20,000 nucleotides of DNA from an uncultured virus (IMG/VR IMGVR_UViG_3300002488_000005) (lineage: Duplodnaviria; Heunggongvirae; Uroviricota; Caudoviricetes): IMG/VR virus record IMGVR_UViG_3300002488_000005, positions 58,618-78,617 of that record. One strand, given 5' to 3'. Shown here one piece after another: positions 192 to 17,292 of the stretch (positions within the stretch are counted from its first letter, which is position 1; the number at the start of each line of letters is the position of its first letter). Position numbers and translations under genes: made by a program. The notes below the pieces were generated by a model. It ran no database searches and was not told the origin of the DNA. It saw only the letters and a list, made by a program, of their open reading frames with translations.

Positions 192-361
192 GCGATCTTG
201 TTGTTTGGAAGCCTGACCTGCCCTTTCAATTCTCTAGAGATTATGGAATTGTCATTGAGGTTATTGATGGCTTTTTGGTCGGTGTTTTGTGGCTCGGCTC
301 TACCGAAGTTTATTTAGAGCCAATTAGGTATTTGGAGGTTATTTATGAAGAGGGCAATTAG
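182..361 (+). CDS. Small SH3/KOW-like 'KVGDLV' family protein, copy 1
   Basis: MRVGDLVVWK...YGIVIEV...VGVLW...YLEVIYEEGN. The ATG at 182 overlaps the upstream stop; the ORF-track start at 134 is probably too long. Confidence 0.75.
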   Translation: MRVGDLVVWKPDLPFQFSRDYGIVIEVIDGFLVGVLWLGSTEVYLEPIRYLEVIYEEGN

Positions 362-557
362 TTCCATAAAGAAAGGTGCGCTTGTAAAAAAGAAGTACAA
401 TATTGACGAGGTTTTTGGCATCACAACCTCAAATGTCGAATACCATAGTCCAATGAACAGCGGCACAGTTACCGCATATATTTGGGTTTTATGGGATGAT
501 GGTGACCACCACCTTTACAAAGTAGATATGTTGGAGGAAGTAAATGAAAGTAGGTGA
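345..557 (+). CDS. Small SH3/KOW-like protein, copy 2 (divergent)
   Basis: IKKGALVKK...FGI...IWVLW...MLEEVNESR; GGAGG ends 6 nt before the ATG. Confidence 0.75.
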   Translation: MKRAISSIKKGALVKKKYNIDEVFGITTSNVEYHSPMNSGTVTAYIWVLWDDGDHHLYKVDMLEEVNESR

Positions 558-711
558 TTTAGTAAGAGTAAAAAATACGCCGTGGGATGATTTAGGAATT
601 ATTTTAGAAATAAACGGCAATTTCAAGTGGGCAGAAGTGCATTGGGTAACTTCCGGGTACATCTATGCTTTTTTTGCTGAAGACTTGGAGGTAGTAAATG
701 GAAGTGGGTGA
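544..711 (+). CDS. Small SH3/KOW-like 'KVGDLV' protein, copy 3 (55 aa)
   Basis: Hand translation MKVGDLVRVKNTPWDDLGIILEINGNFKWAEVHWVTSGYIYAFFAEDLEVVNGSG*; GGAGG RBS; below the ORF-track size cutoff. Confidence 0.85.
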   Translation: MKVGDLVRVKNTPWDDLGIILEINGNFKWAEVHWVTSGYIYAFFAEDLEVVNGSG

Positions 712-880
712 TCTCGTTTGGCTCGATAGGAGACAATTTTATGAGCATGACGAGAACGTTGGTATTATTTTAGAAGTCTTACAGACTCCTGATGGCAAAC
801 TTCTTAAAGTTGCATGGGATAATAATGAGGCTTCATGGTTTCACGAAGACGAATTGGAGGTAATAAGTGAAAATAGGTGA
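698..880 (+). CDS. Small SH3/KOW-like 'KVGDLV' protein, copy 4
   Basis: MEVGDLVWL...VGIILEV...LKVAW...ELEVISENR; GGAGG RBS. Confidence 0.85.
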   Translation: MEVGDLVWLDRRQFYEHDENVGIILEVLQTPDGKLLKVAWDNNEASWFHEDELEVISENR

Positions 881-1043
881 TTTGGTTAAACTTAAAACAG
901 GAACTGAGATTTATGGCTTCATTGTTTGTATACAAGAAAATAAATGGATTGGTTCTCGATGCGCCGTTGTCTGGCTACAGGACGGATTCCCAAAGAAATG
1001 GTATGCATTAGTCGAACTGGAGGTGTTAAATGAAAGTAGGTGA
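867..1043 (+). CDS. Small SH3/KOW-like 'KVGDLV' protein, copy 5 (58 aa, GTG start)
   Basis: Hand translation MKIGDLVKLKTGTEIYGFIVCIQENKWIGSRCAVVWLQDGFPKKWYALVELEVLNESR*; GGAGG RBS; not in the ORF track. Confidence 0.85.
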   Translation: MKIGDLVKLKTGTEIYGFIVCIQENKWIGSRCAVVWLQDGFPKKWYALVELEVLNESR

Positions 1044-1215
1044 TATAGTTTACATGAGCAAATCGATGCTCGAAATGGGATACCCAGAGATGGGAATAGT
1101 TGTGGGAATGAAAGGTAAACATTATGTTGTTGGTTTTCCAAATGGATTGGTTCAACCATTTCATCCTAACTGGGTTAGGGCCATATCAATCGAAAGGAAG
1201 AATAATGGCAAATAA
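1030..1215 (+). CDS. Small SH3/KOW-like 'KVGDIV' protein, copy 6
   Basis: MKVGDIVYM...MGIVVG...YVVGF; GGAGG RBS. Confidence 0.8.
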   Translation: MKVGDIVYMSKSMLEMGYPEMGIVVGMKGKHYVVGFPNGLVQPFHPNWVRAISIERKNNGK

Positions 1216-1450
1216 ATTTAAGGTAGGAGATCTTGTGAGGCATGTGCACTGGGATCTGTATGGAATAATTGTGCCAAGTGACAATTATTATAACTGGGTA
1301 AGAGTGATGTGGACTCGTGGAGATTTGGAAAAGCCACCCCAAGGAATTACTTGGATGATGAAGGAGGAACGAGTTGGTTGGAATTCAACACAATTCCCCG
1401 TTTGTAAAGTGGCGAAGCATTGGATCAAATTAGTACAAAAGGAGGAATAA
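1205..1450 (+). CDS. Small SH3/KOW-like 'KVGDLV' protein, copy 7
   Basis: MANKFKVGDLVRH...YGIIV...VRVMW; ATG at 1205 after AAGGA; the stop overlaps the primase start (TAATG). Confidence 0.8.
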   Translation: MANKFKVGDLVRHVHWDLYGIIVPSDNYYNWVRVMWTRGDLEKPPQGITWMMKEERVGWNSTQFPVCKVAKHWIKLVQKEE

Positions 1451-2388
1451 TGGAAGAAAAAGTTAAAATTTTATCGGAGATCTTGGGAAGACCCAACACT
1501 CCATCGGGCGGTGAGTTGTACTACCATTGTCCTTATTGTAATCATCACAAGAAGAAGTTGGCAGTCAATCTCAAGAAAGGTTGGCACTGCTGGGTCTGCG
1601 ACAAACGAGGCAAGAATGCTTATCGCATTGTCCGTAAGTTTGGAACATACCAGCAAAGACAGAAGTGGCTTGAGTTGGAAGGTCGTCTCGACCTATCAGA
1701 ATTTGATCAAATCTTTAATGAATTGAATAATCTTGAAGAAGTACAGACAATCTCACTACCAGATGAATTTATATCGCTCTGTAACAAACACCTGCCTCGC
1801 ACATGCAGAAAACCTTTAGAATACTTGGAGAGCAGAGGTATAGGCAAAGATAAGATACTGAGATGGAAAATAGGTTACTGTCCCGAAGGCCAATATGGAG
1901 GCAGAATAATCATACCTTCGTTCAACAATAACGGAGACATTAATTATTTTATTGCAAGATCTTATGTTGGTCACTCATGGAGATACCTCAATCCCCCGGC
2001 TAAAAAGGACGTTATTTTCAACGAATTGTTTGTAGACTGGGATGAGCCGATCACGTTAGTAGAAGGAGTTTTTGATGCTATAGCGGCTGGGGAAAATGCT
2101 ATTCCTGTGCTTGGGTCCACCCTGCGAGACAAAACAAAATTATTTCAGGCGATAGCCCTGAATGACACGCCGGTTTACTTAGCTTTTGATCAAGACGCTG
2201 AAAAAAAGACTGGACAAATTATTAAGAACATGTTATACTATGATATAGAGTTATACAAGATAGATGTAAGTGGCTTTGAGGACATCGCTGAAATGCCACG
2301 AAGGGTTTTGGAAACTCGAAGGGAAATGGCGCAAGCCATTGACCATGATGATTATTTTTTAATTGACGAACTTAGGAGGATAATGTGA
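1450..2388 (+). CDS. DNA primase (DnaG/T4 gp61-like; Zn finger + TOPRIM)
   Basis: CPYC...CWVC zinc ribbon; YLESRGI; RIIIP; TOPRIM VEGVFDA and AFDQD. GGAGG at 1441-1445 supports the ATG at 1450. Confidence 0.92.
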   Translation: MEEKVKILSEILGRPNTPSGGELYYHCPYCNHHKKKLAVNLKKGWHCWVCDKRGKNAYRIVRKFGTYQQRQKWLELEGRLDLSEFDQIFNELNNLEEVQTISLPDEFISLCNKHLPRTCRKPLEYLESRGIGKDKILRWKIGYCPEGQYGGRIIIPSFNNNGDINYFIARSYVGHSWRYLNPPAKKDVIFNELFVDWDEPITLVEGVFDAIAAGENAIPVLGSTLRDKTKLFQAIALNDTPVYLAFDQDAEKKTGQIIKNMLYYDIELYKIDVSGFEDIAEMPRRVLETRREMAQAIDHDDYFLIDELRRIM

Positions 2389-2582
2389 GTGAGAAAGAGA
2401 AAGAATATTTACAAAAAGATTATATTAAACTAAAAAATATATGCCGTGATCTTGTTTGGATGACACACGGAACAACGGATAAAGAAGAGCATTATGACTT
2501 AGTCAAAATGACAATACCAGCAATCAGGGAAGCCCTTGAAATTATGAAGCAACTTATAGAGGAGGAACAATGTATAAGATAG
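2385..2582 (+). CDS. Hypothetical protein
   Basis: GTG start overlapping the primase stop (GTGA), AGGAGG upstream, 3' end overlaps the next gene. Confidence 0.65.
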   Translation: MSEKEKEYLQKDYIKLKNICRDLVWMTHGTTDKEEHYDLVKMTIPAIREALEIMKQLIEEEQCIR

Positions 2583-5500
2583 CACACATAGCAGACACAC
2601 ACATAAGAAACTTGAAGTATCACGATGAGTATAGAATCGCCTTTCGTGATCTTTATGAAAAATTAGCAAGCGACATGCCGGACCTTATTGTCCATTGCGG
2701 TGACCTTGCACATACAAAGACGCAACTCAGTCCTGAATATTTTCAACTGTGCGCAGAGTTTCTATCGTCTTTAGCCAACATAGCGCCAACATATGTTATA
2801 TTGGGTAATCACGATGGCAATCTCAAGAACGACAGTAGGCAAGATGCGATTACGCCTATTGTAAATGCACTGAACCATCCACGATTACATTTACTAAAAG
2901 ATAGTGGTGAAGTTCATATTGGCAATGATTTGGTTCTAAATGTGCTTTCAATCTTTGACCGAGACAATTGGGCCAAACCAACAAACAAAGAAAAAATTAA
3001 CATTGCCTTGTATCATGGGGCAATTGCCGGTAGCCAAACCGGTGCAGAATGGACAATGGACCAAGGAGATGACGATGTTTCTATTTTTCATGATTTTGAT
3101 TTTGCGATGCTTGGAGACATCCACAGACAGCAACAGCTAGACCTTGATGGTAGAGTCTGGTACTGTGGTTCAACCACTCAGCAGAAATTTAGCGAGTCTG
3201 CTCGCAAAGGTTATCTTTTGTGGGAAATAAACTCAAAAGACAAGTTTAACGTTTCAAAAAGATTCGTAATAAATCCAAGACCNTTTATTACAATAAGNCT
3301 AACAGATAAAGGTGCGCTACCAGACACTCATGTACCTAGAAATGCAAGACTCAGAATCATCTCTAGAACCAATTTGCCGGCTGATAAACTTAGGAAGGCA
3401 AGATCAATAGCGGAAATGAAATGGAGCCCTCATTCCGTAACAATGCTCAACGGCAAAGAATCGTCAAAAATGCATGATGAAGGCTATTATTCGAACTCTG
3501 TCTTATCTGAAAATCTAAGAGATATCAGTGTGCAAGAAAAATACATTAAGAACTATTTATCCGACATGGAGCTTGAACCTAGCGTTTTGGAAAAGGTTCT
3601 TGAGCATAACCAGAAATACAATACATTAGCAGAACAAGGGGAGGAAGTTAGTAGAAATGTTATATGGAAAATTAAAAAAGCAGAATGGGACAATTTGTTC
3701 AACTACAGTGAAAAGAATGAAATCGACTTTGCAAAACTCAACGGGCTTGTTGGCATCTTTGGCCGTAATTATTCCGGCAAGTCTAGTATTATCGACAGCA
3801 TTTTATTCACGCTGTTTAATGCAACCTCGAAAGGTGAGCGAAAGAACGTACACGTCATAAACCAAAATAAGCAAAAGGCTATTGGTAAGGTAGAGATTGA
3901 GGTTGGAGATAAAACCTACAAAATCTGTAGAAATTTAGAGAAGTATACTAAAAAGTATAAAGGCAAGGAGTCTCAAGAGGCTAAAGTTGATTTAGATTTT
4001 CATCTAGTTTCTGATGATGAAAGCCTGAACGGTACAACAAGGAATGAAACTGATTCCAACATTAGAAAGCACTTTGGGAGCATGGAGGACTTTTTGTTAA
4101 CATCCATGTCTTCCCAGTTAGATTCTTTGTCTTTTGTCAAAGAAGGTTCTACGAAGCGTAAAGAAATTCTCGCTAAGTTTCTGGATTTGGAAATATTTGA
4201 TAAAAAGTTCAAGTTGGCCAAAAAGGACGCTGCTGAGTTGCGTGGTGTCGTAAGAAGGCTACAGGATAAAAAGTGGGATAAAGAGATCCAAAAGAACATA
4301 GAGATCTTGGAGGAAATCAAGCACGATCTTGCTAACCAAAATACCAAATGTCAAAAAATAACATCAGAGTGCGACAGTCTTCAGGCAGAACTTGACATTC
4401 TCAATTCCAGAATTGAGAACATACCAGCAGAGCCAATTGACATTGATAAGGTTATTTTAGAAATTAGTAAGATACAGAAACGTAAGCAGCACCTCAAAGA
4501 TCAAACTCAAGATTTCAATTTCAAGGTCTGGGAAATGGAAGAGCAGGTTGAATCTAAAAAGAAAGAGTTTGCGGAGATCAATATAGGCGAATTACGTCTT
4601 AGTAGAGCATCTGCTGATGCTATCGAGCATAAAATCAAAAAGACACGTGAAGCTATATCAAACTGGATTTCGCAAGAAAAGGTAGCACTAAAAAAGATCA
4701 AGATGTTAGATAATCACGAATATGATCCCAACTGCGTGTTCTGTTGTGAAAATAAGTTCGTCAAAGATGCACATGATGCTAAATCTTCTTTACCCGATAC
4801 GTTGGAGAAAATTGCCCATCTACAGCAGCACCAAAGAGATCTACAGGACTCGCTAAATGACCTAGACGTAGAAACAGTAGATAGCCAAATTGATTTACAT
4901 GTCAAACTACAGGAAGACATTCACCGCCTAAGCAGAACAATTGAGATGCACAAAATTTCTATTGAAGGCAACAAATCAAAAATAAATCTCCTACATAAGG
5001 AATACGAAGAGTTGTGTGAAAAGAAAAACCTTTATGAAGAAAATCGAGAAGCAATTGAAAATTTAGAGACATTATCTAGAGAAAAGAATGCTTTAGAAAT
5101 GGTAATTCGCAGTAAGCAAAATTCTTATAAAAAGTGCCAAGATAGAATAACTGAGATTCTTGTTGAGAAAGGGTCAACCAAGTCGACATTGGCTACGTTG
5201 CTTGAAAACCGTAAAGAACTAGAGGATGTTGAGAGAGAGTGGATCGCTTATGATTTGTTTTTGCAATGTATGCATGCAAATGGCATTCCTTACCAAATTA
5301 TAAAACAAAAACTTCCTTTACTAAATGAAGAGATTGCAAAAATTCTAGAGAACATCGTTGATTTTGAAGTCTTTTTTGAGAGTAATGATGCAAAGCTCGA
5401 CATCAACATAAAGCACCCATATTATGATCCTCGTCCGTTATCTATGGGTTCAGGCGCAGAAAAGACATTGGCATCGATGGCAATACGTTTAGCTTTGATT

Positions 5501-5719
5501 TCAATAACAAATTTGCCAAAGAGCGAACTATTTATACTTGACGAACCAGCAACTGCTTTAGATCAAGAACACATGGAAGGCTTTACAAGATTGCTAAGAT
5601 TGATTAAAAACCAATTCAAGACTGTAATTCTAATCTCCCATCTTGATTCCTTAAAAGACGTTGTCGACATGACAATTGAAATTGATAAAGTTGATGGCTA
5701 TGCTAATGTGAGGGTGTAA
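2570..5719 (+). CDS. Fused Mre11/SbcD nuclease - Rad50/SbcC ATPase (T4 gp47-gp46-like)
   Basis: N-terminal metallophosphoesterase motifs (HIADTH, GD, GNHD, YHG, GDIH), then Walker A GRNYSGKS, long coiled coils with a central CVFC Zn-hook, signature-like SGAEK, Walker B FILDEP and H-loop ISH, all in one 1049-aa ORF. Confidence 0.93.
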   Translation: MYKIAHIADTHIRNLKYHDEYRIAFRDLYEKLASDMPDLIVHCGDLAHTKTQLSPEYFQLCAEFLSSLANIAPTYVILGNHDGNLKNDSRQDAITPIVNALNHPRLHLLKDSGEVHIGNDLVLNVLSIFDRDNWAKPTNKEKINIALYHGAIAGSQTGAEWTMDQGDDDVSIFHDFDFAMLGDIHRQQQLDLDGRVWYCGSTTQQKFSESARKGYLLWEINSKDKFNVSKRFVINPRXFITIXLTDKGALPDTHVPRNARLRIISRTNLPADKLRKARSIAEMKWSPHSVTMLNGKESSKMHDEGYYSNSVLSENLRDISVQEKYIKNYLSDMELEPSVLEKVLEHNQKYNTLAEQGEEVSRNVIWKIKKAEWDNLFNYSEKNEIDFAKLNGLVGIFGRNYSGKSSIIDSILFTLFNATSKGERKNVHVINQNKQKAIGKVEIEVGDKTYKICRNLEKYTKKYKGKESQEAKVDLDFHLVSDDESLNGTTRNETDSNIRKHFGSMEDFLLTSMSSQLDSLSFVKEGSTKRKEILAKFLDLEIFDKKFKLAKKDAAELRGVVRRLQDKKWDKEIQKNIEILEEIKHDLANQNTKCQKITSECDSLQAELDILNSRIENIPAEPIDIDKVILEISKIQKRKQHLKDQTQDFNFKVWEMEEQVESKKKEFAEINIGELRLSRASADAIEHKIKKTREAISNWISQEKVALKKIKMLDNHEYDPNCVFCCENKFVKDAHDAKSSLPDTLEKIAHLQQHQRDLQDSLNDLDVETVDSQIDLHVKLQEDIHRLSRTIEMHKISIEGNKSKINLLHKEYEELCEKKNLYEENREAIENLETLSREKNALEMVIRSKQNSYKKCQDRITEILVEKGSTKSTLATLLENRKELEDVEREWIAYDLFLQCMHANGIPYQIIKQKLPLLNEEIAKILENIVDFEVFFESNDAKLDINIKHPYYDPRPLSMGSGAEKTLASMAIRLALISITNLPKSELFILDEPATALDQEHMEGFTRLLRLIKNQFKTVILISHLDSLKDVVDMTIEIDKVDGYANVRV

Positions 5720-5720
5720 A

Positions 5721-6089
5721 ATGAAATTAACTACAAAATTATTGAAAAAAATAATAAGAGAAGAGGTTGATAGGCTCAAAGAAACAGCCTATAACAAAGC
5801 AAAAGAAATAGGGGAAAAGCACGGTATTAACGATTGGAAATCAATCGACTTCGACAAGCATGCGGCAGCGGCTAAACATGCCCTAAATATCTTGTCAAAG
5901 TTTGGTTATTTCAAAAGCGACAATAAGGGTGTTGCAAGGTGGGTTAATGAGCTAAACCTAATGAATGGGGTATACAAAATTTATGTACACCCAGACAAAT
6001 TTTCAGAAGTTGTGAATAAAATAGAAGCCGAAGCTCCTAGTATTGCAAGGTTCATGACAGTTACCTACTATGAGGAGAAAAAATTATGA
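5721..6089 (+). CDS. Hypothetical protein with 'MKLT..L..IIREE' leader
   Basis: N-terminus MKLTTKLLKKIIREEV; starts 1 nt after the preceding stop. Confidence 0.75.
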   Translation: MKLTTKLLKKIIREEVDRLKETAYNKAKEIGEKHGINDWKSIDFDKHAAAAKHALNILSKFGYFKSDNKGVARWVNELNLMNGVYKIYVHPDKFSEVVNKIEAEAPSIARFMTVTYYEEKKL

Positions 6090-6166
6090 GTAAGTCAGAA
6101 GAAAAAAAATGTAAATGCACAACACCGTGTTGTGAAGGTTGCCAATGTAAGGGGGGCTGTTGCTAA
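6086..6166 (+). CDS. 26-aa cysteine-rich, metallothionein-like peptide
   Basis: MSKSEEKKCKCTTPCCEGCQCKGGCC*; GAGGAG RBS at 6072-6077; ATGA overlap with the upstream stop and TAATG overlap with the downstream start. Confidence 0.7.
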   Translation: MSKSEEKKCKCTTPCCEGCQCKGGCC

Positions 6167-6429
6167 TGGCCTGTCACGACGATCATGATGTTGAACAAGA
6201 AGACACTCGATTATCGGGTGATTGTGAATCGCATGAAGCGATGAATAAATTAGGAATGATTGATATCATTCTTGGTAAGGCTGTATCTAGAAAGTTGCTG
6301 GTTTTTGCAACAGCAACAGGAATGTTTATGTGGTATGGTCTTGATCCTGACACGTGGGGCCTGATTGCAATGATATATGTCGGTGGCCAATCTGTTATTG
6401 ACACAGTCAAAGTATGGAAGCATGGATAA
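6166..6429 (+). CDS. Putative holin-like small membrane protein
   Basis: Two hydrophobic segments after an SRKLLV motif, with a basic C-terminal tail; ATG at 6166 overlaps the upstream TAA. Confidence 0.55.
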   Translation: MACHDDHDVEQEDTRLSGDCESHEAMNKLGMIDIILGKAVSRKLLVFATATGMFMWYGLDPDTWGLIAMIYVGGQSVIDTVKVWKHG

Positions 6430-6818
6430 TGTTTTGGGTTAAGCTAAAATTAGCTGCCGCATGGTGTCGCCAATACTGGAGATGGCTCGTATTTGTCATC
6501 GCAGTATTGGTTTCTTACCTTTTGGGTAAGAGAGACAAAGATAAACTGAAAGAACAAGCAAAGCTAGCAAAAGATATGTATATTAAAGAAAAGGAAGTGA
6601 TCGAAAGAGCACATCAGCAAGAAATGCAAGCCAAAGAAGAAGCACAACAAAGATATTCTGAGGCTGTCGATAAGATCGAAAAGAAGTACGAAGAAGACCA
6701 ATTCGATTTAACCCATGCAAAGAAAGAAGCAGTTAAGAAGATGGTCAACAAGGCCAAGAACAACCCGGATGAGATTGATCGCATTCTGGAGGAACAATTA
6801 GGAATAGTAAAAAAATGA
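6429..6818 (+). CDS. Membrane-anchored coiled-coil protein (i-spanin/Rz-like)
   Basis: Single N-terminal TM segment (WLVFVIAVLVSYLLG) followed by a charged helical coiled coil; directly follows the holin-like gene (TAATG). Confidence 0.5.
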   Translation: MFWVKLKLAAAWCRQYWRWLVFVIAVLVSYLLGKRDKDKLKEQAKLAKDMYIKEKEVIERAHQQEMQAKEEAQQRYSEAVDKIEKKYEEDQFDLTHAKKEAVKKMVNKAKNNPDEIDRILEEQLGIVKK

Positions 6819-7948
6819 AACTTATAATGGAAAATTGGAGAAGGTATATTGTAGAATCTAAGTTGAAATTGGATGAAAACCAAATGCAACCTAAATTCCT
6901 CAGAGAGTTTGTAATGAACGAGGGTCTTATTGAAGAAGACAAGGACCCTGACTCGTTATCTGTTCAAGAATTAGCCAATATGAAACCGCAGCAAATAATC
7001 AGTGCTTATGAAAACATGAAGAAGAATGAGACTGGTGACAGGATAGCAAAAAGAATTTCTCGGTACAAAGCATTGAACGACAGACTAAGAGAAACAGAAT
7101 TTGAAATGTCAGAACTAAAATGGACGAGAGAGGAAGGCGGACCTTCAATTTTCACTAATTTTTTCGACTCAATCAAAAAAATAACCAACGCAATTCTTAG
7201 GACCTCCTTCAAGACATCAAAAGAAAAAGAGGCCGATATAGAAAAAAATTATGACAAATCTGTCGCAGATCTTAGACAAATCATGCTTGATGCTTATAGT
7301 CCAATTGAAAGGGAGCTATTTAGAGCAATTAGTATTTTTACCGGAGGACATTACCCAGCGATCAGGGATCCTGATGCTTTTGATCCAAAGAAAGCCAAAG
7401 CTCTCAAGTTTGTTAATGATGGCATCATCGACATGTTTCAGCCTTCCAAAGAAACATACGAAAAGGCTAAAGTAATATTACAGAAACTAGTTCAATCCAA
7501 AATAAAACCTGTCGAGGTGTGGAGAGGCCTTAGTATGAAAGAGACGACATCTAGTAAAAGTAGGTATGCCGGTTTAGATTTGTATAAGAAAGGGAACGTA
7601 ATTAGTGTGGGTAATCTTAGCTCTTTTAGTACTGACAAGAATATTGCTTACGATAATTTTATGGAAGGCGAGCATTTTGCTAATTTGCAAAAAGGTCAAT
7701 GGGGTGTTATATTATATATACCTAAATTGACAAGGGGTGCTGACGTCGATGAGTTCTCGCAGTTCGAAGACGATGAAGTAGAGATTATAGTGTCTGGTAA
7801 ATTTAGAATAAGTAAAGTAGAATCGCACCCAAGAGGAAAGGAGAACAAGAGGCAAGAAGGCAATAGCTTACAGGACCTCTTGAATTCTCCAAACCCTCCA
7901 AGATATGATCAGCATGTCATAGTCATAACGTTAGAGGATATAAAATGA
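6815..7948 (+). CDS. ADP-ribosyltransferase, R-S-E class (T4 Alt/Mod, VIP2-like)
   Basis: C-terminal domain has VWRGL (Arg), LSSFST (STS motif) and SQFEDDEVEII (ExE); N-terminal leader MKLIMENWRRYIVE. Confidence 0.72.
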   Translation: MKLIMENWRRYIVESKLKLDENQMQPKFLREFVMNEGLIEEDKDPDSLSVQELANMKPQQIISAYENMKKNETGDRIAKRISRYKALNDRLRETEFEMSELKWTREEGGPSIFTNFFDSIKKITNAILRTSFKTSKEKEADIEKNYDKSVADLRQIMLDAYSPIERELFRAISIFTGGHYPAIRDPDAFDPKKAKALKFVNDGIIDMFQPSKETYEKAKVILQKLVQSKIKPVEVWRGLSMKETTSSKSRYAGLDLYKKGNVISVGNLSSFSTDKNIAYDNFMEGEHFANLQKGQWGVILYIPKLTRGADVDEFSQFEDDEVEIIVSGKFRISKVESHPRGKENKRQEGNSLQDLLNSPNPPRYDQHVIVITLEDIK

Positions 7949-8172
7949 AATTTTTATTATTATTAACATTAGCACAAGAGACCGAAGAACCAAAGGTCAA
8001 ATATCAAAAAGAAACGGTCATAGACTTTGAAGGATTAGAATTAGAAGGCGAACTGGTAAGGCCGCAAGGTAACCTCATCTTAGAAAGAAAACGAGCAAAT
8101 TTCAACCCTCTCATTAGACTAAGAGACACTTTTGATGCCGAGATCAAACAATCGGGAAAGGACATAGAGTAG
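7945..8172 (+). CDS. cglF: CglF/GltF-like (myxobacterial adventurous-gliding) small exported protein
   Basis: Short hydrophobic N-terminus, then KETVIDFEGLELEGELVRPQG...ERKRANFNPLIRLRDTFDAEIKQS. This matches the TVIDF...EGEL.KP.G...RK...F..LI..R..F..E...S pattern I recall for CglF/GltF. Confidence 0.72.
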   Translation: MKFLLLLTLAQETEEPKVKYQKETVIDFEGLELEGELVRPQGNLILERKRANFNPLIRLRDTFDAEIKQSGKDIE

Positions 8173-8777
8173 TGAAATTGACAACAAAACAGTTAAAACA
8201 AATCATTAAAGAAGAATTAGGCTCGCTTGTAAAAGAAGCAATGTATGTTCCACCCGGGGTGACTGACATCAGAAAAACACTCAATCCCCGACAGAGAAGA
8301 GCGGCGGATGAATTATACCAGACAGATCCAATAATGGGATCTGAGTTAGGTGGCGTGGACAAAGATCATATGGGCCCTGAGAAACCCGAACAGATTCTTG
8401 GGACTACTGGGATGCGGATACCAAAAGAAACAATTCGAAACACAGCAATAGATTATTTATCATCTGGATGGGATCGTGAGCGAATGCCCTTTAAGAATTG
8501 GAATATACACGCACTAAAGCCAAAGGTAATGAACCATGTACTTGACACACATTATCCCGGCTTCAGGGAACGTTTGGCTAATAGATGGAAAGGAGAACCA
8601 GAACATCAAAAAAGTCAGGACAATCAGCTTAAATGGCATGGCTTCCCTGACGGTGAGGAGTGGTTCGGGAAACATCGTGAATCTATAGATCAAATTGTCA
8701 CGGAAGTTATCTATGATATGTTCAAATTGTACAACAAGGAAGTTCTTCATGATATATTCAAATCGGATAGTATGTGA
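8172..8777 (+). CDS. Hypothetical protein with 'MKLT..L..IIKEE' leader (GTG start)
   Basis: N-terminus MKLTTKQLKQIIKEEL; TAGTG overlap with the upstream stop. Confidence 0.75.
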   Translation: MKLTTKQLKQIIKEELGSLVKEAMYVPPGVTDIRKTLNPRQRRAADELYQTDPIMGSELGGVDKDHMGPEKPEQILGTTGMRIPKETIRNTAIDYLSSGWDRERMPFKNWNIHALKPKVMNHVLDTHYPGFRERLANRWKGEPEHQKSQDNQLKWHGFPDGEEWFGKHRESIDQIVTEVIYDMFKLYNKEVLHDIFKSDSM

Positions 8778-8805
8778 GAAATAGAATATAATTACAAGAA
8801 AAAAC

Positions 8806-8834
8806 TTGACAAACCCCTAAAAGCGTGTTATACT
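8806..8834 (+). promoter_or_regulatory. Sigma70-type promoter (extended -10)
   Basis: TTGACA (8806-8811), 17-nt spacer, TATACT (8829-8834) preceded by TGn, with an A-rich upstream tract, in the largest intergenic gap of the window (78 nt). Confidence 0.85.
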
Positions 8835-8855
8835 ATATTTTTACACGGAGATCAA

Positions 8856-9266
8856 ATGACTAGTTTTTTTATGTTTTTGCTAATGGCATGCCCTGTTGCT
8901 CATGCGGATGTGCCAAAGTTTACAAGTATTAAGAAAGGAGAAGCTGCGCCCTTCGCAGGGCGACTATTCAACGACGAGGCTCTTGCAATTATCATTGTTG
9001 ATAAGAAATTCGAAGGCAAAGAATGCCAGTTGCGTGTGAATTACGAGGTTGATTTGATGAAGGCACATGAAAAATACAAGTTTGATATCCTCACGGCGAC
9101 TTGTGAAGCAGATGATATGCGTTTGAGCGAACTAATTAGCATTAGGGAAGAAGAAAACAAATTTCTTCGTGAACAGATTAAGCCAAGTAAAAACTCGTGG
9201 TGGTTGGCTGGTGGATTTATCACTGGTGTGGCAACTGCGATTGGCATAATGAATGTTATAAAATAG
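8856..9266 (+). CDS. Exported coiled-coil protein with C-terminal membrane anchor (possible spanin component)
   Basis: Signal-like N-terminus (AHA|D cleavage site, or LMAC lipobox-like), helical middle, C-terminal WWLAGGFITGVATAIGIM; GGAG RBS. Confidence 0.6.
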   Translation: MTSFFMFLLMACPVAHADVPKFTSIKKGEAAPFAGRLFNDEALAIIIVDKKFEGKECQLRVNYEVDLMKAHEKYKFDILTATCEADDMRLSELISIREEENKFLREQIKPSKNSWWLAGGFITGVATAIGIMNVIK

Positions 9267-9274
9267 GAATTATT

Positions 9275-9520
9275 ATGAAAATAACAAAACAAAAATTATT
9301 GAACTTAATAAAAGAAGAGATGGAGCTAGATAACGTCCTATCAGACGAATTGGAAAATAAAGTTGGACCAATTGCGAAAAAACTTAGAGATGATTTGAAA
9401 ACAAATGCTGCTGTGGTCAAGATTGTAGACGACGCAGCAAAAAACATTTCTGGTGGAAATGAAAACGTTCAGGGATTAGTCAAGGCAGCTATTCTAAGTA
9501 AGATTTTTATTGAAGACTAA
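9275..9520 (+). CDS. Hypothetical protein with 'MKIT..L..LIKEE' leader
   Basis: ATG at 9275 after AGGA; MKITKQKLLNLIKEEM. The ORF-track start at 9197 is probably too long. Confidence 0.75.
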   Translation: MKITKQKLLNLIKEEMELDNVLSDELENKVGPIAKKLRDDLKTNAAVVKIVDDAAKNISGGNENVQGLVKAAILSKIFIED

Positions 9521-9530
9521 TGGAGGCACC

Positions 9531-9917
9531 TTGAGCAAAGATCCAAATTATGCAATTAAAATAGAAAAAGCAATAGCAAAAAAGTATGGCGATGAAACCG
9601 TACAGCACCCTAAAAAGAATTGGTGCGATAAAAAAGAAAAAAAATACTTATCGGAAATGAAAAGGCTTTACAAGCCAGAAAGCAATCCAGATGATGATGT
9701 TGAAATTGACGGTGTTTTAATATCAAGGAAACTAATTACAAAAGAATCTGATCGTTCTTGTCCGATTTGTAACACATATTCATTCAAATCAAGCGATGAT
9801 GTTTACATGTCAAAGTTTGGTTGCTGTCAAAGGTGCTACATTCAGTGGGTTGAAGGCCGTGAAGAAAGATGGAAAAACGGATGGAGACCAAATGAAGATT
9901 ACAAAAACGAGACTTAG
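9531..9917 (+). CDS. Hypothetical protein with C-terminal zinc-binding motif
   Basis: GGAGG then TTG at 9531; CPIC...CCQRC. Confidence 0.7.
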   Translation: MSKDPNYAIKIEKAIAKKYGDETVQHPKKNWCDKKEKKYLSEMKRLYKPESNPDDDVEIDGVLISRKLITKESDRSCPICNTYSFKSSDDVYMSKFGCCQRCYIQWVEGREERWKNGWRPNEDYKNET

Positions 9918-10197
9918 AAAAATTATTCAAGAAGAAATGCAAAGACTTGAGGAAATCGATAATGATTGGGCTGTTGAAAAGGCCATGGATGAATTGAGAC
10001 GATTATTGCTTTCAGGCAGAATCCCAGATCCAATTATGGTTTTAGATGGTTTTATTGAGGAATTGAAAGCTATGTCTGATGGTGGTAGCGACTTGCCGCC
10101 AACAGGAGGCTCCATTCCTCCTTCAGGTGACATGGGCGGAATGCCAATGCATGCCGGTATGATGGAAGGATTCAAAAGAAAAAAGAGGAAAAAATAA
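9892..10197 (+). CDS. Hypothetical protein with 'MKIT..L..IIQEE' leader
   Basis: ATG at 9892 after GGAG; MKITKTRLRKIIQEEM; G/P/M-rich and basic C-terminus. Confidence 0.72.
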   Translation: MKITKTRLRKIIQEEMQRLEEIDNDWAVEKAMDELRRLLLSGRIPDPIMVLDGFIEELKAMSDGGSDLPPTGGSIPPSGDMGGMPMHAGMMEGFKRKKRKK

Positions 10198-10748
10198 TGG
10201 CAGATTCTAATATTTTAGAGATTGTAAGAGGCTTGGCCCAAGCGGCAGCAAATGCTTATGATGGTTCGCATGATGAGCGCTTTGTTCGTGATGGCGAGGC
10301 TAAGAAAGTCGGACTCCAGAGAGAGGAAGGTTGCCCTATAATGGATTCTAGGGTTATGGATGGATTTAATGTAAAATTTTACGGAAATAAAATCTGTATA
10401 AAATACCAATCAGACATTCAATTGAAAGAGATTCATGGTGGCGGCTTTGAAACAGAGATGGAAAGAAGACTCGATGAGATCAAAAAGTTCTTGCAAAAAG
10501 AGTATAAGGTAATCACCGGCAAATCAATTACATTATCAAAAGTAGACGATATTCAGATTTTAGCAACTTCTGTTTCACGAGTAAGGTCATTTGTACAAGC
10601 ATATCGTCACTATAACATATCCGGCCTAAAAGAAGACGAAGGCTGGAAAGGATCAGAAAATAGATCTGTTGATGATTCTATTAGAAAGTTTTTAGAGTTA
10701 AGTAACAATAACAAGAGACCCCAGAACGATACAAGGAAAAAGGGCTAA
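10197..10748 (+). CDS. Hypothetical protein upstream of terminase
   Basis: 183-aa ORF; GAGG RBS; TAATG overlap. Confidence 0.75.
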   Translation: MADSNILEIVRGLAQAAANAYDGSHDERFVRDGEAKKVGLQREEGCPIMDSRVMDGFNVKFYGNKICIKYQSDIQLKEIHGGGFETEMERRLDEIKKFLQKEYKVITGKSITLSKVDDIQILATSVSRVRSFVQAYRHYNISGLKEDEGWKGSENRSVDDSIRKFLELSNNNKRPQNDTRKKG

Positions 10749-10754
10749 TGTATA

Positions 10755-12338
10755 ATGGCCTTCAGGTTAACAAAGAAACAGATTGTTAAAGAAATACTAA
10801 AATGTGGAAAAGATGCTCCACATTTTATTAATAATTATTGTCGAATAAGTCACCCCATGAAAGGTTTGATTCAGTTCAAGACTTACCCATATCAAGATGA
10901 TTTACTAAATGATTATAATGATTTTAGATTCAACGTTATTCTAAAAGCTAGGCAGTTAGGGATATCAACCATTACTGCTGCTTATTGCGTTTGGTTTATG
11001 CTTTTCCACAAAGAAAAGAACATTGTTGTTCTTGCGACCAAGTTCAGCACAGCGGCGAACTTAGTAAAAAAAGTAAAAAGTATGATGAAGAATTTACCTG
11101 AGTGGATGAAAATAGCAACAATTGACGTTGACAATAGAACGTCTTTTGAATTATCTAATGGCTCAATCATAAAAGCAGTGCCCACTTCTGAAGACGCTGG
11201 TCGTTCAGAGGCGTTATCTTTGCTTGTTGTTGATGAGGCTGCTCATATAGAAAAAATGAATGAAATTTGGACTGCGGTTTACTCCACGCTAGCAACTGGT
11301 GGTCGGTGCATTGCACTTTCTACTCCAAAAGGAACGGGAAACTGGTTTCACAAGACGTATATTGGGGCAGTTGACGGAGAAAACGAATTCAATCCCATAG
11401 AGCTAATGTGGGATGTGCACCCGGAGCGAGATCAGGCTTGGTTTGAAAAGGAAACTAAAAACATGTCTAAGAGACAAGTGGCCCAAGAATTGCTCTGTAA
11501 TTTTAACACCTCCGGAGATACAGTTGTTCATCCGGATGATTTGGCTTGGATTCAAGGAAACATCAAAGATCCGATCTATAGAACTGGATATGATAGAAAT
11601 TTTTGGATTTGGGAGAAATTTGACGGCAATAACCAATACTTACTAACAGCAGACGTAGCCAGAGGCGATGGTGCAGATAATTCTGTATTCCATGTCATAA
11701 AACTAAACACCATGGAGATCGTAGCAGAATATCAGGGCAAACCATCTTTAGATTTATATTCTAGGATCCTGTTTGATGCCGGTGTTGAATACGGAAATTG
11801 CTTATTAGTTGTCGAGAACAACGGAATTGGGATCTCTGTTTTAGAAAAGCTATGTGATTTGGGATATCCTAATCTTTACTATTCAATAAAGTCAACGCAT
11901 GAGTTCGTTGAGTCTTATCAGGGGGAAGTGATGGACAAGGCCGTAGCAGGGTTTACTACTTCTACCAAGACAAGGCCACTGGTTGTGGCTAAATTGGAAG
12001 AATTTTTTAGGAATCGACTCTTAACAACTTATTCATCTAGAATTTATCACGAATTGAAGACATTTATTTGGCAAAACGGCAAACCACAAGCAATGCGTTC
12101 ATATAACGACGATTTGGTTATGGCACTTGCCATCGGCTGCTGGGTCAGAGATACCGCTCTACAGGTCAACAAGAGAGAAGTAGAATATAAAAAAGCGCTA
12201 TTGAATTCTATGTATAAAAGTGACAGCGTTATGAACACAACAATTAAAGGAATGAAGGGCTACAACGAAAAAATTGAAGAAAAACAACAAAAATTCAAAG
12301 AAGATATGACTAAATTCTCATGGATTTACAAAGGATAA
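10755..12338 (+). CDS. Terminase large subunit (T4 gp17-like)
   Basis: YPYQ adenine-binding motif, Walker A KARQLGIST, Walker B LLVVDEAA, motif III STPKG, nuclease acidic motifs ADVARG and DDLVMA. Confidence 0.95.
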   Translation: MAFRLTKKQIVKEILKCGKDAPHFINNYCRISHPMKGLIQFKTYPYQDDLLNDYNDFRFNVILKARQLGISTITAAYCVWFMLFHKEKNIVVLATKFSTAANLVKKVKSMMKNLPEWMKIATIDVDNRTSFELSNGSIIKAVPTSEDAGRSEALSLLVVDEAAHIEKMNEIWTAVYSTLATGGRCIALSTPKGTGNWFHKTYIGAVDGENEFNPIELMWDVHPERDQAWFEKETKNMSKRQVAQELLCNFNTSGDTVVHPDDLAWIQGNIKDPIYRTGYDRNFWIWEKFDGNNQYLLTADVARGDGADNSVFHVIKLNTMEIVAEYQGKPSLDLYSRILFDAGVEYGNCLLVVENNGIGISVLEKLCDLGYPNLYYSIKSTHEFVESYQGEVMDKAVAGFTTSTKTRPLVVAKLEEFFRNRLLTTYSSRIYHELKTFIWQNGKPQAMRSYNDDLVMALAIGCWVRDTALQVNKREVEYKKALLNSMYKSDSVMNTTIKGMKGYNEKIEEKQQKFKEDMTKFSWIYKG

Positions 12339-12342
12339 AAAA

Positions 12343-14286
12343 ATGGCTTATAATAAAAATAACAAGAATCCGTATAATGAAACATCAGGGCTTTTCAAAG
12401 CGCTCACAAAATTATTTTCGGGTCCAATAATAAATAGAAGAACTCAAACAGGCAGAAAACTCAGACGCAGACATTTAGACATGTTTTCATCTAAGTTTAG
12501 ATCTGCTAGCGGTAAACAATTCAAAAAGACAGAATACAATGCAATGAATGCGATCACTGTCAACATGATCTCGGCTAGAAATAGAACAGAGCGTTATGTA
12601 GATTTTGATGAAATGGAATATGAACCAATAATTGCATCTAGTATTGATATTTATGCGGACGAAATCACTACACACTCCTCAATACAACCAATGTTGAAGA
12701 TCAAGTGTCCGAATGATGAAATAAAGGCAATTTTAAATTCATTATATTACAATGTTTTGAACATAGAGCACAATCTTTTTGGATGGGCTCGCACCATGTG
12801 TAAGTATGGCGATCTATTTTTGTATTTAGACCTTGACGATAACATAGGAGTTCGTTCGTGCATTGGGATTCCGTCCCAAGAAGTGGAAAGATTAGAAGGC
12901 GAAGATGAATCAAATCCAAATTATGTACAATTCCAGTGGAATTCTGCTGGTTTGACATTAGAAAACTGGCAGGTTGCACATTTTAGGGTTTTAGGAAACG
13001 ACAAGCACTATCCATACGGGACCTCAGTCTTAGAGCCAGCCAGACGCATATGGAGGCAGCTAATTTTGTTAGAAGACGCCATGATGGCCTACAGAATTGT
13101 TCGTTCTCCAGAAAGACGAGCATTTTATATTGATGTTGGGTCTATTCCCCCGCAAGATGTTGAGCAATATATGCAAAAAGTCATGACTCAAATGAAGAGA
13201 CACCAAGTTGTTGATCCGAAAACTGGTCGGGTTGACTTACGATACAATCCGCTTTCTATTGAGGAGGATTATTTTATTCCAATCCGTGGTGGTGCTTCCA
13301 ACACAAAAATCGAATCTATGAAAGGTGGGGAATTTACCGGCCAAATAGAAGATGTTAAGTATCTGCGTGAAAAGTTGTTCGCAGCGTTAAAAATCCCACA
13401 ATCATACCTTGTTATGGGTGAGGGCGCACAAGAAGACAAGACAACATTGGCCCAAAAGGACATCAGGTTTGCGAGAACAATTCAAAGACTACAAAGATCT
13501 GTTGTGTCTGAATTGGAAAAAATAGGAATTATACATCTTTTTACATTGGGCTATCGTGGAGATGACTTGCTGTCATTCAAGTTAGGTTTGAACAACCCTT
13601 CAAAAATAGCAGAATTACAAGAACTGGAGCACTGGAAGACTAAATTCGACGCAGCGGGTGCGGCCACTGAAAACTATTTCTCTAGAAGGTGGGTAGCAGA
13701 AAACATGTTGGGTGTATCCGAAGAAGAGTTCCTCAGAATGCAAAGAGAGATGTACTTCGACAAAAAATTCTTAGCAGATCTTGAAAAAGCAGCATCTGGT
13801 GAACAAGGAGGCGGTGACGATCTCGGTGGTGGTGATCTAGGCGGAGACCTTGGCGGCGATCTCGGTGGGGACCTTGGTGGTGATTTGGACCTCGGAGGTG
13901 ATGAAGGCGGTGATGCCGGAGAAGATGAAGGAGGAGACGCTGGTGGTGACGATGATGTTCTATTGGCAGCGCCCGGCAAAAGAGATGAGGACATTTGGGT
14001 TCGTGCAGATGCGGCCAAGTTCAAGAGAGGCAAATATAAAAGGCACAAGTCTTCTTATGACAAAGGCGGCAGAAGAAAGCAGATGAAAAATATGGCTACT
14101 GGAGAATATGGACAAACTGGGCGATCAATCTGGAAAGGATATCCAGAACTGAGTCGTTTAGGGAAAGGTATTATAGAATCTCATAAAGTAGAAGAAAATA
14201 AACTATTTAGTACTAAAGATGAAACAGCTTACTTAGTTGAAGGCTTACTATCAAAGAGGAATAATGATGAAAATGAAGCACAATAA
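12343..14286 (+). CDS. Portal protein (T4 gp20-like) with low-complexity C-terminal extension
   Basis: LEDAMMAYRIVRSPERRAFYIDVG, EEDYFIP, EDVKYLREKLFAALKIP and DIRFARTIQRLQ are gp20-family motifs; follows the terminase. Confidence 0.93.
   Translation: MAYNKNNKNPYNETSGLFKALTKLFSGPIINRRTQTGRKLRRRHLDMFSSKFRSASGKQFKKTEYNAMNAITVNMISARNRTERYVDFDEMEYEPIIASSIDIYADEITTHSSIQPMLKIKCPNDEIKAILNSLYYNVLNIEHNLFGWARTMCKYGDLFLYLDLDDNIGVRSCIGIPSQEVERLEGEDESNPNYVQFQWNSAGLTLENWQVAHFRVLGNDKHYPYGTSVLEPARRIWRQLILLEDAMMAYRIVRSPERRAFYIDVGSIPPQDVEQYMQKVMTQMKRHQVVDPKTGRVDLRYNPLSIEEDYFIPIRGGASNTKIESMKGGEFTGQIEDVKYLREKLFAALKIPQSYLVMGEGAQEDKTTLAQKDIRFARTIQRLQRSVVSELEKIGIIHLFTLGYRGDDLLSFKLGLNNPSKIAELQELEHWKTKFDAAGAATENYFSRRWVAENMLGVSEEEFLRMQREMYFDKKFLADLEKAASGEQGGGDDLGGGDLGGDLGGDLGGDLGGDLDLGGDEGGDAGEDEGGDAGGDDDVLLAAPGKRDEDIWVRADAAKFKRGKYKRHKSSYDKGGRRKQMKNMATGEYGQTGRSIWKGYPELSRLGKGIIESHKVEENKLFSTKDETAYLVEGLLSKRNNDENEAQ
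13819..13899 (+). repeat. Coding tandem repeat (DLGG)x6 in the portal tail
   Basis: Mostly 12-bp units GAYCTNGGNGGN with synonymous variation. Confidence 0.85.
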
Positions 14287-15091
14287 GAAAAGAAATACCG
14301 CTTTTCTTTACGAATGTCTTGTAAAAGAACTTACAAAATCAATTGTTAGAAATGATAAAGACAAAAAGAAAGCAATTATAAAGATTATAAAAGAGTTTTA
14401 CTGTAGAGGATCACTCTTGAGAGAGGATTTGGAAATATACAAATCGGTTCTAGAATCCAACAAGATGTCTACAGAGTTCGCCAAAAGATTTATCTTTGAA
14501 GCGAAAAAAGACTACGACGCTTTAGATAGAAAAGCTATCTTCAACCTCCAGACAAAGCTGATTAGAGCCATTAACGAGACGTTATCAAACAATGCTTTTG
14601 CTAACTTTATATCAAACTACAAAGACATAGCGTCTGTTGGTGCTTTTTTTGATTCCAATTTGAAGGCAAAAAACAGACTAATTGTCGAATCTAGGCTGCT
14701 GACAAAATTGACTAAAAAGCCTAGTGCCGAAAAGGAAATGAGGCATATTGATAACCTGACTTATAAAACTTTTGTGGATTCTTTTAACAAGAGATATGAA
14801 AAGACATTAAGAAAAGAGCAAAAGGACTTACTGACTAATTATATTGTTTCTTTTTCTGATAATGGATTAGGCCTAAAATCGTTCATGAATGAGGAAATTT
14901 CACGACTTATAAAAGAGGTAGATAACATTACCGAAACTCAAAAAAACGATAAAAATGGTATGTTTTTGTCCAAAATAGAGCGTGTTTCTACTAAGTTGAA
15001 AGACTTTTCAAAGAAGCCTATCTGTGAGCAAATGGTAAAAGATGTTTTTTATATACAAGATTTAGTAGCGGAGATCAATAGAAATGCCTAA
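14264..15091 (+). CDS. Hypothetical protein downstream of portal (head module)
   Basis: GAGGA RBS at 14256-14260 with ATGs at 14264/14267/14273; MKHNKKRNTAFLYE; largely helical. Confidence 0.75.
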   Translation: MMKMKHNKKRNTAFLYECLVKELTKSIVRNDKDKKKAIIKIIKEFYCRGSLLREDLEIYKSVLESNKMSTEFAKRFIFEAKKDYDALDRKAIFNLQTKLIRAINETLSNNAFANFISNYKDIASVGAFFDSNLKAKNRLIVESRLLTKLTKKPSAEKEMRHIDNLTYKTFVDSFNKRYEKTLRKEQKDLLTNYIVSFSDNGLGLKSFMNEEISRLIKEVDNITETQKNDKNGMFLSKIERVSTKLKDFSKKPICEQMVKDVFYIQDLVAEINRNA

Positions 15092-16905: not shown

Positions 16906-16908
16906 AAG

Positions 16909-17232: not shown

Positions 17233-17233
17233 A

Positions 17234-17287: not shown

Positions 17288-17292
17288 CTCAA

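Follow-up and report, generated by a model that had tools for sequence, protein, structure and literature searches.

What use would a large tailed phage have for a single small part of a bacterial surface-motility machine? The question is raised by a stretch of 20,000 nucleotides (hereafter the window) from an uncultured virus of the Caudoviricetes, which makes up the last 20 kb, positions 58,618 to 78,617, of the 78,617-bp IMG/VR virus record IMGVR_UViG_3300002488_000005. In it, an open reading frame (ORF) of 75 amino acids (aa) encodes a protein that resembles GltF (CglF), a component of the Agl-Glt gliding machinery of Myxococcus. Judged by its sequence, this protein is a member of the GltF/CglF(/NfsF) family, and it probably acts on a Glt/Nfs-type machine of the host at the very sites that GltF itself would occupy. 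A known host protein family is thus found in a new viral setting, and its spread there is wide enough to be seen as biology and not accident.

The family assignment comes from the NCBIfam model NF033764 (gliding_CglF), which residues 11-73 of the window protein match over profile positions 25-87 of 88 (E 3.5e-15, 55.8 bits). The likeness to CglF/GltF that the original prediction had proposed is hence borne out by a significant match, and the ORF itself is as first described, with TVIDF, EGELVRPQG, RKR, LIRLR and FD.E...S all present. Every family-invariant residue (Y, T.IDF, G.L..P.G, R, F, R, F..E...S) is found in the protein, for which searches of Pfam and the PHROGs returned no family. The window gene departs from GltF/CglF in two respects: it scores below the equivalog cutoff of NF033764, which stands at 90 bits, and it does not lie between gltE and gltG. 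As a control for the former point, six matches in five metagenome-assembled genomes (MAGs) with gltF inside a glt cluster scored 55.6-88.1 bits, all below 90; since true MAG gltF genes also fall short of it, the cutoff marks Myxococcus-type equivalogs and not the wider family. None of 14 control genomes matched the model at E <= 0.001, and at the loose E <= 10 there were sub-cutoff matches in three archaeal controls.

For the myxobacterial protein, Luciano et al. 2011 give gltF (MXAN_4868) a length of 89 aa that includes a signal peptide but no domain known to Pfam, and report that gliding requires every glt gene, that functional GltF-mCherry is located at focal adhesion clusters, that GltD clustering fails without gltF, and that gltF also occurs in Bdellovibrio bacteriovorus. 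The same account gives the contiguous sporulation cluster nfsA-H as the closest paralog set of glt; because nfsA-H is contiguous too, the corresponding clusters in MAGs are called Glt/Nfs-type here and no gliding role is assumed for them. The phage protein is like M. xanthus GltF in being small, in having an N-terminal leader and no Pfam domain, in matching NF033764 with the same invariant core, and in the prediction of an unfolded chain with a C-terminal helix. It is unlike M. xanthus GltF in that its leader is much shorter, no other glt gene lies nearby, it scores below 90 bits and it falls outside the Myxococcales-type clade.

The gene (Table 1) begins at the first start possible in its frame. 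Its ATG overlaps the stop of an upstream 377-aa ORF (ATGA, 7945-7948), and its own stop overlaps the GTG of the next ORF at 8172-8777 (overlap region 8170-8174). The leader has only about ten residues, so that the minimal hydrophobic N-terminus of the original prediction is confirmed; it would be cut between MKFLLLLTLA and QETEE, leaving an acidic mature end after T-L-A, and the protein would thereby be exported. This short form is conserved in the close relatives of 75-76 aa (P0019, P0035, P0042, P0043 and P0045 in alignment A1), and leaders of ordinary length are found in more distant phage and cellular copies, with 15-24 residues in the other phage copies. An AlphaFold2 (AF2) monomer from alignment A1 has a mean predicted local distance difference test score (pLDDT) of 60.5 and consists of coil, a leader helix at residues 4-10 and the C-terminal helix at 55-74 (block pLDDT 63-77), which is the architecture described for M. 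xanthus GltF in PMC11761067, where that protein is modelled as largely disordered.

According to the latter paper, GltF would be a periplasmic bridge from GltC to GltG and GltD, with one strand (94-111 in the paper's numbering) modelled as pairing in parallel with another in the C-terminal, TonB-like domain of GltG, and a C-terminal helix (133-147) modelled inside the crevice of the TPR protein GltC (PMC11761067). A parallel might be struck with the TonB box and its C-terminal domain partner, from which the GltF-GltG contact differs in being modelled and not solved. As GltF is modelled in the periplasm, bridging GltG and GltC, and not in the outer-membrane pore, the earlier idea of a literal plug of the outer-membrane complex is less apt; on the related idea that the protein could act on neighbouring cells, a discussion statement in PMC3325183 holds that CglE and CglF, with type I signal sequences, are "likely transferred". 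The aligned C-termini, taken with the NF033764 profile coordinates, suggest that phage residues ~20-39 are the counterpart of the GltF strand and residues ~55-75 that of the helix, and these two mapped contact segments coincide with the two conserved blocks of the phage protein.

That conservation is considerable. Y20, T24, I26, D27, F28, G35, L37, P40, F53 and R60 are invariant in three cellular clades and kept in 58 unique phage cores, G42, R48, F63, E66 and S70 are nearly invariant, and the family residues are conserved at 0.86-1.00 in the phage cores and in the three cellular clades. The phage copies are under strong purifying selection: when 60 distinct ones are compared over their final 60 codons, the ratio of nonsynonymous to synonymous substitution rates (dN/dS) has a median of 0.081 and a maximum of 0.262 (181 informative pairs). 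The phage gltF-like gene is a functional gene. Near-identical pieces of the stretch are also present in contigs of other runs labelled marine metagenome (runs X3 and X4, which yield identical records, are counted once). The contig of run X8 over 8023-8114 differs at 8053, 8061, 8064 and 8076, and all four differences are synonymous (L37, R39, P40, L44), with the low depth of that run meaning that single ones could be errors. The runs listed as holding the stretch are 24 DNA runs, with no RNA run among those listed.

The window is DNA of a marine T4-like phage, with a portal, a large terminase (TerL) and a prohead protease. Its parent record has a CheckV completeness of 43%, with 75 of 77 crude ORFs on one strand and one tRNA-Arg. 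The gltF-like gene is flanked by viral genes, with a DnaG-type primase and an SbcD/SbcC-like nuclease upstream and TerL, the gp20-type portal and the gp21-type prohead protease downstream, and in related phages the same position between replication and packaging genes is kept. It might be thought that a short ORF from a metagenomic source is a chance reading frame, decaying cargo, or cellular DNA mis-assembled or misclassified as viral. The occurrence of an identical gene in three records (G000, L082 and L083), its kept position, the low dN/dS and the near-identical pieces in other marine runs speak against this, as does the lack of cellular Glt neighbours at viral loci described below, and an artefact of this kind is extremely improbable.

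A word-indexed search found 204 homologous proteins of similar length. Relatives were encoded by 94 stretches in a scan of IMG/VR and by 100 stretches in a scan of one genome per species, from which 80 viral and 80 cellular loci were kept; counts of viral and cellular loci refer to these. With the proteins of cellular locus L007 as tblastn queries, GltE or GltG lies within 6 kb at 76 of the 80 cellular loci, the other four being L028 (where the gene is near the contig edge), L034, L071 and L059, and GltC, D, E or G lies within 6 kb at none of the 80 viral loci. The cellular order is outer-membrane barrel, GltC, a TPR protein of ~1070 aa in the GltD position, GltE, gltF, GltG and CglE. The viral loci are gene-dense with nearly single-stranded gene orientation, and fall into at least eight distinct gene neighbourhoods, whose members include a NUDIX hydrolase, a nuclease, a protease, thymidylate synthase and many unknowns; their guanine-plus-cytosine content (GC) is mostly 34-45%, with four at 52-57%, as compared with 44-73% at the cellular loci. 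Among five other carrier records, a T4-type portal was matched in two, one of which has 288,697 bp and is 96% complete, and a third, of 316,664 bp and 94% complete, gave no T4-type portal match. Neither the GltG/J tail domain (NF033768) nor TraB (NF033763) was found in five phage records searched for them, of which two are at least 94% complete; as these records have no GltG/J-type domain, any partner of that kind must be the host's.

The variety of neighbourhoods also bears on whether the protein might serve the phage itself, in a cassette for lysis or its timing, rather than act as a motility factor. Ten loci have the gene arrangement of the window, and in nine of them the gltF-like gene keeps its place between a 134-aa protein with a transmembrane (TM) segment and coiled coil and a spanin-like 136-aa protein (the exception, L083, has a contig that begins within the 377-aa ORF, past the upstream gene); the 134-aa protein, moreover, has a weak match to an Rz-like spanin PHROG (E 4.6e-4). 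At least seven other phage neighbourhoods have different neighbours, mostly of cytoplasmic type, and the sole constant is the GltF-like gene, which makes such an internal role very unlikely.

As to where the phages might have obtained the gene, an IQ-TREE tree was built from 133 unique 66-residue cores, 58 viral and 75 cellular, after removal of exact duplicates and of L116, which is truncated, L066, a read-through, and L037, which lacks a start. A single cellular subclade, that of L002-L050, takes in all 58 viral cores, whereas 17 Myxococcales-type sequences are set apart by a branch with 96% support in the Shimodaira-Hasegawa-like approximate likelihood ratio test (SH-aLRT), with the window protein outside that clade. 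The phage sequences in this subclade are split into several groups, some of them beside L002, L006 and L007, beside L005, L012 and L017, or beside L043. The tree needs seven viral/cellular label changes, and well-supported branches force two, where shuffled labels average 43.4. Because it has only 66 columns and 60 of its 130 inner branches are unresolved, neither the number of transfers nor the exact donor is claimed.

The nearest cellular sequences are the gltF/nfsF genes of aquatic MAGs (e.g., L002, L005, L006, L007 and L043), with core identities of 57-66% to phage copies. They adjoin the phage clades and score in the same NF033764 range, and differ in lying inside contiguous Glt/Nfs-type clusters in DNA of 47-66% GC, against 38% in the phage. 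With profile A1, and with phyla identified by depositor labels, 59 of 101 genomes match in the phylum of G001, which holds L002, at up to 137 bits. In the phylum of G011, which includes a Myxococcota-labelled MAG and whose genomes reach 13 Mb, 221 of 251 match, at no more than 84 bits; one of the latter matches is the unpublished genome G209, of which the claim is independent. Since the two samples have no genomes in common among those listed, these are probably two phyla. The best explanation appears to be that an ancestor of these phages acquired the gene from cells belonging to the phylum of G001, with its Myxococcota and 'Deltaproteobacteria' labels, and that strong selection has since preserved it in many phage lineages.

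In the phylum of G012, which carries the depositor label Bdellovibrionota, only one of 121 genomes matched, the same one with A1 and with NF033764. This match is an 8.9-kb contig (L059, G012:C108) of 22 small genes, among whose PHROG matches are a phosphoesterase, a moron family and, at E 2.8e-46, a MazG-like pyrophosphatase, and its GltF-like protein groups with viral sequences in the tree; most plausibly, L059 is a phage contig that was binned into a Bdellovibrionota-labelled MAG. Within the sample of 121 genomes, a GltG/J-type tail domain was likewise found in the G012 MAG and in no other, and this MAG may form with L059 either a phage-host pair or a mixed bin, which is a weak lead on a host. 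The domain in question is part of a 531-aa GltG-like protein (L173:7917-9512, G012:C9) with no gltF adjoining.

A second envelope gene of the carrier phages leads to the same place. A predicted lipoprotein of 518-535 aa, with two Ig-like domains and a D-N-S-x-S-M motif resembling a metal ion-dependent adhesion site (MIDAS), is encoded close to the gltF-like gene at five viral loci; in the L104 protein a VWA_2 domain is matched at 28.0 bits against a cutoff of 27. Relatives are present in four of five gltF-carrying phage records tested, with 38-39% full-length identity in two, and were not found in the window's own partial record. Among cellular genomes, those with full-length relatives (E down to 5.5e-78) number 84 of 151 for the phylum of G001 and none of 121 for the phylum of G012, and all 17 genomes with a GltF match to profile A1 of at least 90 bits also hold the lipoprotein at E <= 2e-35. 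As far as these homology searches reach, two unrelated phage envelope genes have their nearest cellular relatives in the same genome set. The lipoprotein may be a CglB/CglD-like adhesin or a lipoprotein that masks a receptor. The phage protein had been placed in cluster C23 as a possible second glt-cluster gene common to cells and phages, a link that was rejected, for the ~25% identity covers only a common Ig-like (choice-of-anchor D) part.

The original prediction had taken the host to be a gliding, predatory bacterium of the Myxococcota or Bdellovibrionota. Of this, the first phylum retains support in so far as the nearest cellular relatives sit in Glt/Nfs-type clusters of MAGs labelled Myxococcota or 'Deltaproteobacteria' and the lipoprotein gene points to the same phylum as the gltF-like gene; the Bdellovibrionota part is not supported by the genomes sampled, where the single match is the phage-like contig, and a predatory way of life finds no support here. 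We infer that the host of the window phage is a Myxococcota-like bacterium.

That the peptide would be exported in such a host and take the position of GltF between GltG and GltC is suggested by the conservation of both contact segments, by the leader that every copy has and by the strong selection. The events may be pictured as follows. During infection the pre-protein would be exported through the Sec route by its short leader, and cleavage after TLA would leave a largely unfolded mature peptide of ~65 residues, which would bind the host machine where the host's own GltF binds. The conserved strand would extend the beta-sheet that GltG has in its TonB-like C-terminal domain, the C-terminal helix would sit in the TPR crevice of GltC, and the bound peptide would couple the motor side at the inner membrane to the outer-membrane platform. 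By this means the phage copy might top up or replace a host GltF presumed to be labile or limiting and keep the machine coupled while host gene expression fails, acting as an auxiliary gene of motility or envelope in the sense of psbA in cyanophages; this supply version is put forward tentatively, with somewhat less than even confidence. A complex prediction for the C-terminal domain of L007 GltG (545-654, A2) with phage residues 14-75 (A1) gave 0.28, 0.32 and 0.21 against a mark of 0.32; having been run without controls, it counts neither for nor against binding.

The same contacts could be put to an opposite use. A peptide made in excess might saturate GltG and GltC separately (a prozone effect), or simply block them, and so uncouple the outer-membrane platform from the motor; gliding would then stop, or an envelope receptor would be hidden or immobilised, resulting in superinfection exclusion or in the protection of progeny from debris. 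Phage proteins that switch off host type IV pili are known, T4-like phages keep exclusion genes in variable accessory regions, and receptor-blocking exclusion lipoproteins such as Llp of T5 are of the outer-membrane type. Consistent with this, the surroundings of the gltF-like gene are a variable accessory region that codes for small secreted or membrane proteins, several carriers encode a lipoprotein of outer-membrane type, and the phage has the linker alone, with no partner. However, both binding segments and all invariant residues are kept as in cellular GltF, and the two segments fit a bivalent linker better than a one-sided competitor. As one of the two sites should have been lost or altered in a dedicated blocker, supply or replacement is favoured over inhibition, and an inhibitory mimic seems rather unlikely.

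A number of points weigh against the protein acting as a GltF on a host machine of this kind. The leader of ~10 residues is unusually short for a Sec signal, the window copy has a few atypical residues (G71, E75), and it is the longest terminal branch in the tree (0.73). The contacts of GltF with GltG and GltC are AlphaFold models for which the authors themselves state that there is no biochemical evidence (PMC11761067). The machine affected may not be a gliding machine, as the cellular clusters are contiguous like the sporulation genes nfsA-H. With tblastn at E <= 0.01, a gltF-like gene was found in none of 50,697 GenBank records of cultured phages. The window, positions 1-20000 and hence 20 of the 78.6 kb, had no match resembling a spacer of clustered regularly interspaced short palindromic repeats (CRISPR) in 401 genomes from the phylum of G001. 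The phage has a GC of ~38%, compared with 52-66% in the nearest cellular loci, and its nearest cultured relatives by TerL and portal infect other bacteria: they are Flavobacterium phage immuto, at 47% for TerL and 39% for the portal, and Microcystis phage Mel-JY01, at 43% for each of the two.

In light of the last points, the target might be sought in a host without Glt, where the strand would act as a TonB-box-like peptide towards a domain of the TonB/TolA type and the similarity to GltF would reflect ancestry only. The low GC and the kinship of the structural genes can be accommodated on this view, and so can the modelled GltF-GltG contact, which is a strand addition of the kind made by TonB C-terminal domains (PMC11761067). 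It has to contend with an identity of 50-66% to cellular GltF over the whole core, with identical invariant residues and including the helix modelled to bind GltC, which would be hard to keep without the same partners. It has also to contend with the second gene family, held by the same phylum and absent from the control phylum in the counts above. Usage of Shine-Dalgarno (SD) motifs is a third difficulty. Genes with an SD-like 4-mer at -18..-4 number 47/75 in the window record (10/75 in a background window), 667/1311 in viral loci L084-L161 (background 129/1311), 16/39 in Mel-JY01 (23/39 with annotated starts; background 2/39) and 2/49 in immuto (background 9/49); the strong SD use of the window record, unlike that of immuto, weakens the alternative of a Bacteroidota host. 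Large gaps in GC between phage and host are known among jumbo phages (e.g., phiKZ), and a few carrier genomes have loci of 44-48% GC. A target other than a Glt/Nfs-type machine is thus clearly unlikely.

Seven weak DNA matches (78-91% identity over 33-67 bp) between the window and the 401 genomes from the phylum of G001 were rejected as compositional, for all of them fall at 13812-13951, in a low-complexity (GGD-L)n repeat of the portal tail. The portal has a C-terminal extension of ~170 residues past the T4 portal domain, and the acidic glycine-rich repeat (GGDLGGDLGGDL) spans 13753-13960 (+) inside its gene, with local GC up to 45%, which explains the spurious short matches to high-GC genomes.

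In the literature searched, neither GltF/CglF nor another Glt part was found to have been reported from a phage, in keeping with the earlier remark that this is not known as a described phage auxiliary gene; the main text of the myxophage preprint 10.64898/2026.09.14.751636 contains no 'glt'. A functional parallel is with cyanophage genes of the psbA type, which likewise supply one component of a host multi-protein machine in large T4-like marine phages, are under purifying selection and are nested within host diversity. Unlike these, the phage gltF is not metabolic and codes for a structural linker of an envelope machine for motility or transport. A second parallel is with Tip and Aqs1 of Pseudomonas phages, directed at type IV pili, and Llp of T5, directed at FhuA, which are also small phage proteins acting on an envelope machine and possible receptor. 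These are phage inventions that are not known to have host homologs, whereas the phage gltF is a near-faithful copy of the host's own part.

These patterns suggest that phages carrying gltF act on the surface-motility apparatus of their hosts. A bolder reading, which at present is doubtful, is that uncultured Myxococcota-like bacteria are infected by a broad and so far unrecognised group of large marine phages, both T4-like and jumbo, that carries a kit of host surface-machine parts, the GltF linker and in many cases the VWA-type lipoprotein adhesin, with which gliding or adhesion of the focal-adhesion type would be controlled. Were it true, it would be the first instance of viral auxiliary motility genes for the Glt machinery, and the gltF-like gene would be a ready marker for assigning hosts to these phages and a natural minimal GltF for dissecting how motor and outer membrane are coupled. 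As a marker, the gene also links several dozen large marine phages, all uncultured, to bacteria of a lineage about which little is known, and it would extend the notion of host-derived auxiliary genes from metabolism to a structural linker of a motility or envelope-transport machine. GltF is among the least understood Agl-Glt parts, with a bridging role between GltG and GltC that rests on models, and a form that phages have minimised to leader, strand and helix marks the parts that matter and offers a compact reagent for complementation and binding tests. Should the protein instead be inhibitory, it would represent a new route to superinfection exclusion by way of an envelope machine driven by the proton-motive force.

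Table 1. Features of the gltF-like gene, its surroundings in the window, and the VWA-like lipoprotein genes of other viral loci
Feature	Position	Strand	Remarks
gltF/cglF-like gene, 75 aa	7945..8172	+	From the ORF list; ATG start, stop TAG 8170-8172
Shine-Dalgarno GAGGA	7934..7938	+	6 nt 5' of the gltF-like ATG
Hydrophobic leader, residues 1-10 (MKFLLLLTLA), putative signal peptide	7945..7974	+	T-L-A at -3..-1
Acidic linker, residues 11-19 (QETEEPKVK)	7975..8001	+	Variable in family; column conservation 0.28-0.72 in phage copies
Conserved strand segment, residues 20-39	8002..8061	+	Y20, T24, I26, D27, F28, G35, L37 invariant
Middle segment, residues 40-54	8062..8106	+	P40, G42, R48, F53 conserved
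C-terminal helix, residues 55-74	8107..8166	+	R60 invariant; F63, E66, S70 nearly so; AF2 helix
134-aa protein, N-terminal TM and coiled coil	6414..6818	+	Conserved upstream neighbour in the phage group
377-aa ORF	6815..7948	+	Only in the window phage and identical copies
136-aa protein	8856..9266	+	Conserved downstream neighbour; cluster C16, hydrophobic segments at both ends
Large terminase	10755-12338	+	Phage marker
T4-type portal	12343-14286	+	T4 gp20-type, PF07230 E 1.2e-76
VWA-like lipoprotein	L104:5114-6670	-	
VWA-like lipoprotein	L135:10227-11813	-	
VWA-like lipoprotein	L140:55-1653	+	
VWA-like lipoprotein	L155 and L156:5171-6778	+	Also in records G008 and G010

Some further observations concern the cellular copies. 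GltF-like genes also occur in MAGs titled Enterobacterales, Enterobacteriaceae, Klebsiella pneumoniae or Rickettsiales, in DNA of 58-70% GC and with GltE or GltG within 6 kb in 15 of 16 cases; the depositor labels of these 16 loci (L004, L006, L011, L015, L023, L031, L045, L048, L049, L051, L060, L061, L064, L068, L070 and L071) look wrong. Many cellular genomes in the phyla of G001 and G011 have two to four GltF-like genes, which fits the existence of paralogous Glt/Nfs-type systems, and in G433 and G455 two copies are found a few hundred bases apart.

Within the window, the phosphoesterase and ATPase parts of the SbcCD-like nuclease are joined in one protein of 1049 aa (2570-5719, +), with an N-terminal calcineurin-like phosphoesterase (SbcD/gp47-like) followed by an SMC/SbcC-like ATPase (gp46-like), so that the two nuclease subunits are fused. 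The 377-aa ORF, which is translationally coupled to the gltF-like gene, gave no match in Pfam or the PHROGs; in its C-terminal half, the pattern R / S-x-S-T / E-x-E (VWRG, SFSTD, EVEI) is reminiscent of ADP-ribosyltransferases such as Alt of T4. The 136-aa downstream protein has a lipobox-like N-terminus (…LLMAC…) and a C-terminal TM segment and is in this respect like a unimolecular spanin. Several unrelated accessory ORFs in the window share similar N-termini (MKLIMENWRRYIVE, MKLTTKQLKQIIKEEL, MKITKQKLLNLIKEEM, MKITKTRLRKIIQEEM), at 6815, at 8172, at ~9275 (an internal Met of ORF 9197-9520) and at ~9892 (an internal Met of ORF 9796-10197), and an N-terminus of the form MKLLLENWR... recurs in other phage loci (clusters C3, C41, C60 and C64). 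These shared N-termini bring to mind the capsid-targeting sequences of the internal proteins of T4, which are cut by the prohead protease, and the accessory region may accordingly encode proteins that are injected into the host.

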